Part shown: positions 32,092-34,943 of the stretch, one piece after another
Layout of the letters: every line of letters begins with the position of its first letter
How positions within the stretch are numbered: position 1 is the first letter of the stretch
NCBI GenBank assembly: GCA_963715985.1
Contig: CAVQSP010000004.1
Location: forward strand, 1-64,000
Origin: an uncultured Thermoleophilia bacterium
Lineage (GTDB): Bacteria; Actinomycetota; Thermoleophilia; UBA2241
DNA length: 64,000 bases
Direction of reading: 5' to 3'
Translations under genes and position numbers: made by a program
The notes under the pieces: model-generated
The model's input: the letters and a program-made list of their open reading frames with translations, nothing else
Told to the model about the DNA's origin: nothing
Databases searched by the model: none

Positions 32092-33561
32092 GTGAAACGA
32101 AACCTGTTCGCCGGCCGCCGGCGCAGCGAGGGCGTGCAGCTCAGCGTCCTCACCGACGACGACCTGCTCGACATCCACTCCGGCACGCTGGAGGTGCTGG
32201 ATCGCACCGGCGTGTTCGTGGAGGCGGAGGAGGCCCGCGAGGTCTTCGCCCGCGCGGGCGCCGAGGTCGACGACGGCACCGGTGTGGTGCGCATCCCGCC
32301 CCACGTGGTCGAGGAGGCCCTGCGCACCGTGCCGTCCAAGGTCGTGCTCGCGGGGCGCGACCCGAAGAACGACATCGTGCTCGAGCCGGGGCGGGTGGGC
32401 TTCACCAATTTCGGCGAGGGCGTCAAGGTCGTGGACCCGTACACCGGCGAGGTGCGCGTTCCCACCAAGGACGACGTCGGCACCACGGCCAAGGCCGTCG
32501 ACTACCTCCCCAACGTGGACGTGTACGAGCGCGCCCTCACGGCCATGGACGTGCCCCAGGAGTCGGCCCCGTTGCACCAGGCCGAGGCCTGGATGACCAA
32601 CACCTCCAAACACGGCTTCATGGGCTCGGGCAACGGCTACCTCTCGGAGAAGCTCCTCGACATGGCGGCGGCCATCGTCGGTGGCCGCGACAAGCTTGCC
32701 CGGCGGCCGATCATCTCGTTCATCACGTGCCCGGTGAGCCCGCTCAAACTGGTGCGGGACACCTGCGAGATCATCATGAGCGCGGCCCGCGGCGGCGTTG
32801 CCGTGAACATCCTCTCCATGGCCATGGCCGGCGGCTCCTCGCCGGTCACCCTGGCCGGGACGCTGGTCACACACAACGCCGAGGTGCTGGCGGGGCTCAC
32901 GCTCAACCAGCTCACGCGGCCGGGGGCGGCGGTGGTGTACGGCAGCTCCACCACCGCCATGGACCTGCGGCTCGCCGCCGCCTCGGTGGGCTCTCCGGAG
33001 TGCTCGCTCATCAGCGCCGCCGTCGCGCAGATCGCGCGCTTCTACCTCCTGCCCAGCTGGGTCGCCGGTGCGTAGGGCGACTCCAAAGTGGTCGATGCCC
33101 AGAGTGGCCACGAGAAGACCCTGACCGGCCTGATGCCGGCGTTGGCAGGTGCCAACCTCATCTACGGTCTGGGGATGATCGAGTCGGGCATGACCTTCGA
33201 CTTCGGGCAGCTCGTCATGGACGACGAGTTCGCCGGCATGATCAAGCAGTGCGTCGCCGGCATCCCGGTCAACGACGAGACGCTCGCCCTCGACGTCATC
33301 CACGAGGTCGGGCCCTTCCAGGACTTCCTGAGCCACGACCACACCATGGCGCACATGCGCTCCACCTCGCAGCCGGCGCTCATCGACCGCCGCGTCCGCG
33401 ACGAGTGGGCGGCCATGGGGTCGAGCACGTTGCACGAGCGGGCGCTCGCCAAGGCGAGGGTCATCATCGAGACGCACGTCCCGGAGCCGCTGCCTGAGGG
33501 TGTCCCGGAGGAACTGGCGGCCATCATCGCGGCCGCCGAACGCGAGCTGGGGGTGGGCTGA
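32092..33561 (+). CDS. mttB: Trimethylamine:corrinoid methyltransferase with in-frame amber codon (pyrrolysine) at 33073-33075; 489 aa on readthrough
   Basis: [60 protein letters not shown]-[TAG][29 protein letters not shown]; ORFs 31987-33075 and 33088-33561 share a frame. Confidence 0.95.
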
Positions 33562-34943
33562 TGGCCGACATCCGTACGCGCATGGGCGATGGCTACGTGG
33601 CCATGCTCACGCCCGAGGAACTGCGCGCCGACCTGGAGGCCGGCTGCGCCGAGGCGGTGAAGCGCGCCAAGGTGCCGCCGCTCGAGGAGAACGAGTTCGA
33701 CTGGCTCGTCGACCTCTTCGCCAATCCGAGCCGCATCATGGGCGTGGACCCGGGCCGCGAGGTGATCCTCACCAAGGACGGCTCGGTCAACACGCTGTGC
33801 TCGGCGCAGCTCTCCAGCGGCGTCGGGCTGCCGCTGAGCCGCGAGCAGGCCTTCCGCGTGTTCGAGCGCGCCTTCTGCTTCGACACCATGGAGATCGGCC
33901 ACCCCGACTACTCGTACAAGCCGGTCAAGCCCATCGTCTCCCTCGAGGCGACCGGGGTGGAGCAGGCGCTGCTCACCACCATCATCCCGGTGTTCTACGG
34001 GGCGATGCCCAACTTCGGCCTGTACGCGCAGCCGGACGGGCCGTTCCCCAACCCCGCCGACCTGCTGCCGCGCGGCGAGGTCGAGGCGGCGCGCGAAGTG
34101 CAGATGGAGATGGCCGAGGCCTGCAAGGCCGACATGCTCTACGTCTCCCGGATCATGGCCGAGGTGGGCGCCGACGGCATCAACTTCGACACCACCGCCT
34201 CCACCGGCGACGCCGAGTTCCTCGCCACCCTGCAGGCGGTGGAAGAGCTGGCCGCGACCACCGACCTCTCCATCGAGGTCGGCATGGCGGCCGAGTTCGT
34301 GCTGGGCTTCCACGGCCAGCTCGAGTACAAGGGCAAGCGGCTGGCCGGCATGTGGCCGCACCAGCAGGTCAAGGTGGTGGAAGAGGCCGGCGCCCACATC
34401 TTCGGCCCCGTCGTGAACACCAACTCCCGCAGGTCGGTGCCGTGGAACGTGGCGCGTGCCGTCACCATCGTCAAGGAGTGCTCGCGCGTCGCCGAGATCC
34501 CCGTGCACGCCAACGTGGGCATGGGCGTGGGCGGCGTGCCGATGTTCGAGGTGCCGCCCGCCGACGTGCTCACGCGGGCCAGCGCCGCGATGGTGATGAT
34601 CGCCAACGTGGACGGCTTGTAGGTGGGCACCGGCGATCCCTACGGGATGTCGATCAGCCACGCGCTTGCCTCCGGCATGGGGGGCATCCGCACCACTGGA
34701 GACCTGGTGGCGAGGATGCAGCTCCGCAGGAAGATGAGGCTTCCGGAAGCGAAGAAGTACGTGGCCGACAAGCTCAAGGTGGGTCTGGACGACCTCGCCG
34801 ACAGCACCGTGATGAGGGGCCTGCGGCAGGAGCTGGACATCGGCGTGATCACCGCCGTGCCCGGCTGCCGCAAGGGCATCGAGGCCAAGCGCAACATCTC
34901 CGAGCTGCTGGACGTTCCTGTACCCTGTCTGAAGCGGCTGTAG
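33561..34943 (+). CDS. mtbB: Dimethylamine:corrinoid methyltransferase with in-frame amber codon (pyrrolysine) at 34620-34622; 460 aa on readthrough
   Basis: [62 protein letters not shown]-[TAG]-[35 protein letters not shown] overlap with mttB. Confidence 0.95.

Follow-up and report, generated by a model that had tools for sequence, protein, structure and literature searches.

In the trimethylamine methyltransferase MttB of Methanosarcina barkeri, the imine of pyrrolysine (Pyl) binds trimethylamine (TMA) and the methyl group is passed to a Co(I) corrinoid. The 64,000-nucleotide stretch analysed here (the window; contig CAVQSP010000004.1 of assembly GCA_963715985.1, from an uncultured Thermoleophilia bacterium) carries an mttB gene and, overlapping it, an mtbB gene of the dimethylamine (DMA) methyltransferase family, each interrupted by one in-frame TAG that is read here as a Pyl codon. 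The trait itself is not new, this being one more genome in a lineage with reported Pyl methyltransferases. Pyrrolysyl-tRNA synthetase (PylRS) was recorded in two Actinobacteria by Guo et al. (PMC9630628), and Actinobacteriota metagenome-assembled genomes (MAGs) from Stordalen Mire express Pyl-type mttB and mtbB (Ellenbogen et al., PMC10805028). The latter study names the genus Bog-752, which its supplement assigns to Thermoleophilia; UBA2241, the same class as the present genome. MAG bog_752, named there, carries TAG-bearing mtbB homologues as well as PylSc. The surprise expressed in the initial annotation at finding Pyl in an actinobacterium was thus overstated. In their accessible portions, these two studies note presence and expression; the expansion to 23 Pyl sites, the spread of pylS over 51 of 55 genomes and the codon context described below do not feature there. 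A title-level literature search, with subscription papers outside its scope, showed no paper on Thermoleophilia with pyrrolysine and none on a 5′ codon rule.

Compared with M. barkeri MttB (7XCL, 7XCM and 7XCN; PMC9842639) and MtbB (TIGR02368), the locus shows full-length homology, the same Pyl position and one in-frame UAG per gene. It differs in its bacterial host at 70% GC, in the absence of a corrinoid gene from the operon, in a PylRS split into PylSn and PylSc, and in a methyl sink that would be the Wood–Ljungdahl pathway rather than methanogenesis. TAG makes up about 18% of stops here, against a median of about 5% in Pyl-using archaea (PMC12626013). As in Acetohalobium arabaticum (PMC11467909) and marine Deltaproteobacteria (PMC8318568), UAG serves both as stop and as Pyl codon, and selenocysteine (Sec) machinery co-occurs; A. 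arabaticum switches pyl expression with TMA (PMC11467909), whereas the present genome has its pyl genes dispersed across 8 kb on both strands, at a distance from the operon.

The coordinates and translations agree with the initial annotation, which had described two genes overlapping at TGATG, with a sole internal TAG at codon 328 of mttB and at codon 354 of mtbB. To judge from this overlap, mtbB is translationally coupled to mttB. The elements of the pair are as follows.

32092–33561, forward strand: mttB, start GTG, stop TGA; Pyl-type trimethylamine:corrinoid methyltransferase, 489 amino acids (aa) with read-through.
33073–33075, forward strand: in-frame TAG of mttB (Pyl328), context GGT GCG TAG G; aligned to Pyl334 of 7XCL/7XCM.
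33561–34943, forward strand: mtbB, start ATG, stop TAG; Pyl-type dimethylamine:corrinoid methyltransferase, 460 aa with read-through.
34617–34622, forward strand: TTG TAG of mtbB, the in-frame TAG (34620–34622; Pyl354) preceded by a rare Leu codon.
34938–34943, forward strand: terminal CTG TAG of mtbB, the true stop, a Leu-TAG pair with a common Leu codon.

When read through, MttB scores 736.1 bits over its whole length against the NCBIfam equivalog TIGR02369 (cut-off 525), and MtbB scores 525.6 bits against the equivalog TIGR02368 (cut-off 369.1) over residues 5–454, a span that includes the UAG. Alignment to chains 7XCL and 7XCM places MttB residue 328 at residue 334 of the M. barkeri enzyme, as had been claimed, and aligns Gly108, Met243 and Tyr358 with Gly110, Met249 and Tyr364, which are named as active-site residues in M. 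barkeri, Gly110 and Tyr364 activating Pyl (PMC9842639). MtbB matched no PDB chain; its assignment to the Pyl column is borne out by the homologues, in which the TAG column is the same in Bacillota, Thermodesulfobacteriota and one archaeon, and by Rfam. The match to PYLIS_2 (RF02509) begins exactly on the mtbB TAG (74.8 bits, gathering threshold 36), and that to PYLIS_3 (RF02510), spanning 33073–33172, begins exactly on the mttB TAG (64.4 bits, gathering threshold 38), scores that may partly reflect coding conservation. Moreover, in loci L023–L130 a TAG occupies the Pyl column in 101/101 mtbB matches covering it and in 38/38 mttB matches with at least 75% identity, both being raw counts with duplicate fetches and the loci of the window left in. 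Because they are conserved at the Pyl column across homologues, the TAGs are neither chance nor error. The initial annotation had reached the same view on the ground that errors in the window are indels, an argument that is weak because two other genes of the genome carry lone TAG substitutions absent from relatives. mttB and mtbB are real genes, and insertion of Pyl at their internal TAGs is given a probability of about 0.9.

Public databases hold the products split, at 327, 353 and 106 aa, just as gene callers had been expected to leave them. By codon adaptation index the two genes rank at percentiles 52 and 71 among 1659 genes, which upholds the earlier statement that codon usage is host-like. 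The actinobacterial host likewise stands: the closest relatives are Thermoleophilia, and the closest MtbB homologues (78–93% identity) come from MAGs labelled Thermoleophilia, Actinomycetes or Actinomycetota. One close homologue is labelled Deltaproteobacteria, yet it nests inside a Thermoleophilia clade. Named homologues and the supplement of PMC10805028 make UBA2241 the likely family. A quick tree of 80 MtbB rows gave two Thermoleophilia clades, and no donor was inferred. In two RNA-library runs both genes, TAG sites included, are partly covered, at a low share and with DNA carry-over possible; among the RNA-run matches listed, both TAGs are unaltered. In 15 runs from wetland metagenomes, at least half of the words are present; these may stem from one campaign and may include the source.

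A whole-genome search recovered the genes to which the initial annotation had looked for support, namely pylT, pylSc, pylSn and pylBCD, with pylB frameshifted. The assembly comprises 4.35 Mb in 22 contigs at 70% GC, and on its contig C13 the pylB, pylC, pylD, tRNA-Pyl(CUA), pylSn and pylSc genes lie within about 8 kb on both strands. The two parts of the split PylRS, PylSn and PylSc, score over their cut-offs (316 versus 178 bits and 125 versus 51 bits), as do PylC and PylD.

C13:555126–555198: tRNA-Pyl with CUA anticodon (pylT).

The pyl genes do not form one operon (C13:551928–560155); pylBCD-pylT stand together, pylSn, a frameshifted corrinoid gene and pylSc lie on the opposite strand, and unrelated genes are interspersed. 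The pylD gene (C13:554249–555055) itself ends in TAG just before pylT, which could reflect feedback or chance. A tRNA-Sec (C13:139538–139635) and SelA (C13:103605–104978) accompany the Pyl machinery, which makes a code of 22 amino acids probable; a selenoprotein motif search of the genome gave nothing convincing.

Several observations weigh against a Pyl-dependent methyltransferase operon in this organism. The pylB gene is split in two frames in this assembly and is frameshifted in one of the five congeners tested, genome completeness is 88.8% and contamination 7.29%, with the pyl genes on a different contig from the pair, the operon contains neither a corrinoid gene nor a second methyltransferase gene, and a complete-looking pyl set can be non-functional, as in B. 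weybense (PMC12626013). However, pylB is intact in 4/5 congeners, so that the break here is probably an assembly indel. In three congeners mttB-mtbB and pylSc share a contig (C10 of G024, C3 of G013 and C11 of G002), so that contamination is no longer a concern at the level of the lineage; in the present assembly, the tetranucleotide profiles of the window contig and the pyl contig are similar (r 0.94). PylSc is found in 51/55 genomes of the same family and 33/36 of the same genus, in 9/55 genomes of one other family of the class, in none of 190 genomes from ten further families sampled in the class, and in 1/400 genomes drawn from the phylum. Two small congeners, G048 and G049 (1.7–1.8 Mb, 98% complete), have no pylSc and no close mttB match.

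In 10 mttB, 11 mtbB and two near-identical mtmB genes of the genome a TAG occupies the Pyl column, which makes 23 sites, and the codons that precede these TAGs are unusual. Although TTG accounts for only 2.3% of Leu codons genome-wide, each of the 17 Leu codons before a Pyl TAG is TTG (10 in mtbB, five in mttB and two in mtmB), whereas among the 537 other TAG stops 46 are preceded by Leu, never encoded by TTG or TTA; the Fisher p of 1e-15 for this contrast is nominal and overstated, the paralogues being kin. Moreover, all 16 called genes that end in TTG-TAG are Pyl genes. The base at +4 is a purine at 23/23 Pyl sites against 283/537 ordinary TAG stops, and Gly occupies position −2 at all 23 sites, which may be a protein constraint. 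In the Thermoleophilia set, the codon at mtbB −1 reads TTG at 57 of 58 distinct loci and TTA at the remaining one, and this TTG is the top-ranked synonymous anomaly both of 158 and of 224 scored columns; in mtmB the −1 codon is TTG in 11/11 loci. In other bacteria, whose codon background was not measured, all 26 Leu codons at mtbB −1 are TTG or TTA. The mtbB gene is its own paired control, with TTG before the Pyl TAG inside and CTG, CTC or CTT before the TAG at the end in 18/18 distinct orthologues. Such selected synonymous exceptions are visible because the background is 70% GC.

Two other causes of the TTG were tried and rejected. Avoidance of CTAG or CTRYAG fails for Leu, because CTG-TAG contains no CTAG and because ordinary TAG stops follow CTG in 24 cases and CTC in 20. 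CTAG is depleted to 0.22 of expected in the genome, which may partly explain the choice of GCG over GCC before the mttB TAG. Pairing of the 5′ UUG with downstream sequence in a helix was rejected as well, consensus folds giving weak, non-covarying pairs.

Downstream of each internal TAG in the window lies a small hairpin.

33141–33156, forward strand: 6-bp hairpin of mttB, GUUGGC-AGGU-GCCAAC, 66–81 nt after the UAG; kept via the rare codons TTG and GCA.
34684–34719, forward strand: hairpin of mtbB with a purine-rich loop, inner stem 71–88 nt after the UAG; part of Rfam PYLIS_2.

The mtbB hairpin is more stable than shuffled sequences (z −3.4), its GGA codon is present in 58/58 rows against a 4% background, and its pairs 72:87 and 75:84 vary on both sides. 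In mttB, the hairpin takes the form GUUGGC-AGGN-GCCAAC, and its codons TTG GCA occur in 28/28 TAG-bearing rows. In mtmB a conserved small hairpin with an invariant AAT lies about 87–101 nt after the UAG. Both 100-nt regions of the window match the PYLIS models (RF02509, RF02510; PMC3639795), and the distal mtbB hairpin belongs to the PYLIS_2 model. Because the models are confined to the 3′ side of the UAG, they leave out the 5′ UUG; as far as its accessible text goes, PMC3639795 analysed only this 3′ side and reported no structure common to mttB genes. In this lineage, mttB nevertheless retains a 6-bp hairpin, located within the PYLIS_3 match but absent from the structure drawn in that model.

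A Pyl-clade MttB paralogue, 58% identical to that of the window (C3:63040–64500), occurs in four genomes, with Leu (CTC) in place of Pyl and with either Ala or Phe where Tyr364 would stand. In this paralogue the hairpin codon is CTG in 4/4 rows. By sequence, it is a natural case of Pyl loss from a close relative, in which the RNA hairpin has decayed.

These observations suggest that bacteria in which TAG stays a common stop may mark their Pyl codons by a two-part mRNA signal, which would amount to site-directed recoding; this interpretation is given about an even chance of being correct. Part one would consist of the Gly codon, UUG rather than CUN, and the purine at +4, which would weaken release factor 1 (RF1), probably via the P-site tRNA, and part two of the small hairpin 65–100 nt downstream. 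Bacterial precedent exists for an effect of the P-site tRNA on termination. A yeast case has also been described (PMC11160720). In the preferred reading, the P-site tRNA and the +4 base would weaken RF1 termination and the hairpin would slow, or signal to, the ribosome, so that the mRNA context at Pyl sites, where selection is visible, would tilt the contest with RF1 towards tRNA-Pyl.

The strongest competitor, tentative but serious, is a context-blind ambiguity as proposed for Methanosarcina, in which UAG read-through would be set only by Pyl supply and demand, and the rare codons and hairpins would serve mRNA stability, transcription or inherited history instead of recoding. According to the accessible text of PMC12626013 and PMC13663744, there is no known mechanism of targeted insertion, and M. 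acetivorans requires no insertion element for Pyl. Three features of the present data also speak against a single signal: the hairpins of mttB, mtbB and mtmB are unlike in loop and distance; that of mttB is nearly invariant, with almost no covariation, and alone folds no better than shuffles (z −1.0); and most mttB copies have Ala (GCG, as in the window's own mttB), Gln or Gly before the UAG, not TTG. Against context-blind read-through speak the appearance of TTG before the UAG in three different enzyme families, its rank among the synonymous anomalies of mtbB, the use of CTN before the terminal TAG of the same genes, and reversion of the mttB hairpin codon in all four Pyl-less paralogue rows.

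The pair most probably forms a two-gene operon of an anaerobic Thermoleophilia bacterium, encoding Pyl-dependent methylamine methyltransferases. PylBCD would make Pyl, and the split PylSn and PylSc would charge tRNA-Pyl(CUA), allowing Pyl to be inserted at UAG328 and UAG354. If the chemistry follows that of M. barkeri MttB, the Pyl imine would bind the methylamine and the methyl group would pass to a corrinoid protein whose gene lies elsewhere in the genome; since the operon has no corrinoid gene, the methyl acceptor would work in trans. The genome encodes about 20 corrinoid proteins, with 29 corrinoid-protein matches, of which four are over cut-off. From there the methyl group could enter tetrahydrofolate, the Wood–Ljungdahl pathway and acetyl-CoA synthesis, for which Fhs, two CO dehydrogenases and an acs cluster with AcsB (part), AcsC, AcsD, AcsE and AcsV are present. 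TMA, DMA and monomethylamine would then be demethylated in turn.

The initial annotation had proposed that Pyl is used to demethylate TMA and DMA. The Pyl part is upheld by the alignment column and the pyl genes; the substrates follow from family membership, and their exact identity as TMA and DMA is accordingly less certain than Pyl insertion itself, a further point of caution. It is conceivable, albeit unlikely, that both are Pyl enzymes but that the window pair acts on some other amine. The 10 mttB and 11 mtbB Pyl copies, at 46–69% identity, together with dozens of Pyl-free MttB-family genes, suggest divided substrates, and one Pyl-clade paralogue has lost both Pyl and Tyr364. On the other hand, both proteins of the pair pass equivalog cut-offs, MttB retains the active-site residues described in M. 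barkeri, and the operon couples a TMA-type with a DMA-type gene. The expansion of demethylases is extreme, with about 60 MttB-superfamily loci (80 matches including fragments), and several Pyl-free MtmB-like genes are also present. Two near-identical mtmB-corrinoid units lie 8.3 kb apart (C14:682110–683489 and C14:690410–691789), either a duplication or an assembly artefact.

TAG remains an ordinary stop in this genome. It ends 642 of 3606 gene calls, made by a crude in-house caller (74% coding density, frameshifted genes missed), and 21 of these TAG-ending calls are Pyl genes cut at the TAG. The frames that follow TAG are neither longer nor more coding-like than those after TGA or TAA, which indicates that the code is ambiguous and not reassigned. 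In the genome-wide TAG=Pyl code, as described in the available part of a preprint (bioRxiv 10.1101/2024.09.30.615893), TAG is rare or absent as a stop and Pyl is conserved in many non-methyltransferases; here TAG is a frequent stop and the two non-methyltransferase candidates tested proved to be singletons, and such reassignment was rejected. Reassignment would extend mtbB through its terminal TAG into the neighbouring transporter gene.

35061–36305, forward strand: MFS transporter gene, Pfam MFS_1; in frame with the mtbB terminal TAG.

Such a MtbB-MFS fusion, with a second Pyl at the terminal TAG, is highly improbable. The frame does run for 453 codons without a stop, and the terminal TAG is conserved in mtbB orthologues. 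However, nothing after it is conserved: among orthologues, the frame beyond the last TAG is anywhere between 4 and 473 codons long, its sequence varies, and no peptide is shared. Among the loci fetched, a single further distinct one has the MFS gene directly after mtbB, and this gene is not a conserved part of the unit.

A screen for Pyl outside the methyltransferases listed 30 TAG candidates, of which two were tested; it is crude, having recovered only about 12/23 known Pyl sites, so that others may be missed.

C13:626003–626302: CoA-transferase subunit with a single internal TAG.
C20:285989–286318: flavin oxidoreductase with a single internal TAG.

These internal TAGs are common to 0/36 and 0/33 matching relatives, which carry TGG/TAC (Trp/Tyr) or AAG/ACG/TCC (mostly Lys) instead. 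Both being singletons, they were rejected as conserved Pyl sites, which further argues against reassignment; they may represent consensus error, nonsense change or tolerated Pyl.

That the TAGs of the pair are sequencing errors or pseudogene lesions, or that the pyl genes come from a contaminant, as the frameshifts and contamination of the assembly might suggest, is refuted by the presence of TAG in every homologue covering the column, by the linkage of the pair to pylSc in three congeners and by the family-wide occurrence of PylSc.

The region upstream of mttB contains a regulator gene and candidate control elements.

31246–31929, forward strand: TetR-family regulator gene, Pfam TetR_N; immediately precedes mttB in the nearest orthologous loci (83–86% identity).
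31997–32024, forward strand: sigma-70-type promoter TTGACA-16-TACAAT, 11/12 consensus matches.
32029–32040, no strand assigned: palindrome CCACC-CA-GGTGG just past the −10 box, candidate TetR operator.

The promoter search gave one hit, against 0.3 in shuffles, and the −35 hexamer is in register in 5/7 aligned upstream regions; the palindrome is identical in 5/7 of them. The bare palindrome pattern occurs 32 times in the genome against about 20 expected, so that only its position and conservation count. The same operator was looked for upstream of the pyl genes and not found. The operon would be transcribed from its own sigma-70 promoter, with the upstream TetR as its probable repressor. Right after the mtbB terminal TAG (window 34945–34990) lies a strong GC-rich hairpin without a U tract (z −2.0). 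Elsewhere in the window, two well-scoring open reading frames have no Pfam match (48074–49372, 432 aa; 20736–21416, 226 aa).

The codon context bears on a question left open in PMC12626013, as far as its accessible text goes, namely how a cell with ambiguous UAG picks Pyl insertion or termination. If the proposed signal is real, it would constitute site-directed Pyl recoding, contrary to the view that Pyl needs no insertion signal, and if it works it could raise amber-suppression yields in bacterial genetic-code expansion. The window mtbB, with UUG-UAG as Pyl and CUG-UAG as stop in one mRNA, offers a clean test substrate for this cis-signal hypothesis. For annotation, the pair illustrates how pipelines cut key methyltransferase genes short. 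Overall, the trait is family-wide (51/55 genomes) and heavily expanded (23 sites), and wetland and soil bacteria of this family may compete with methanogens for methylamines.

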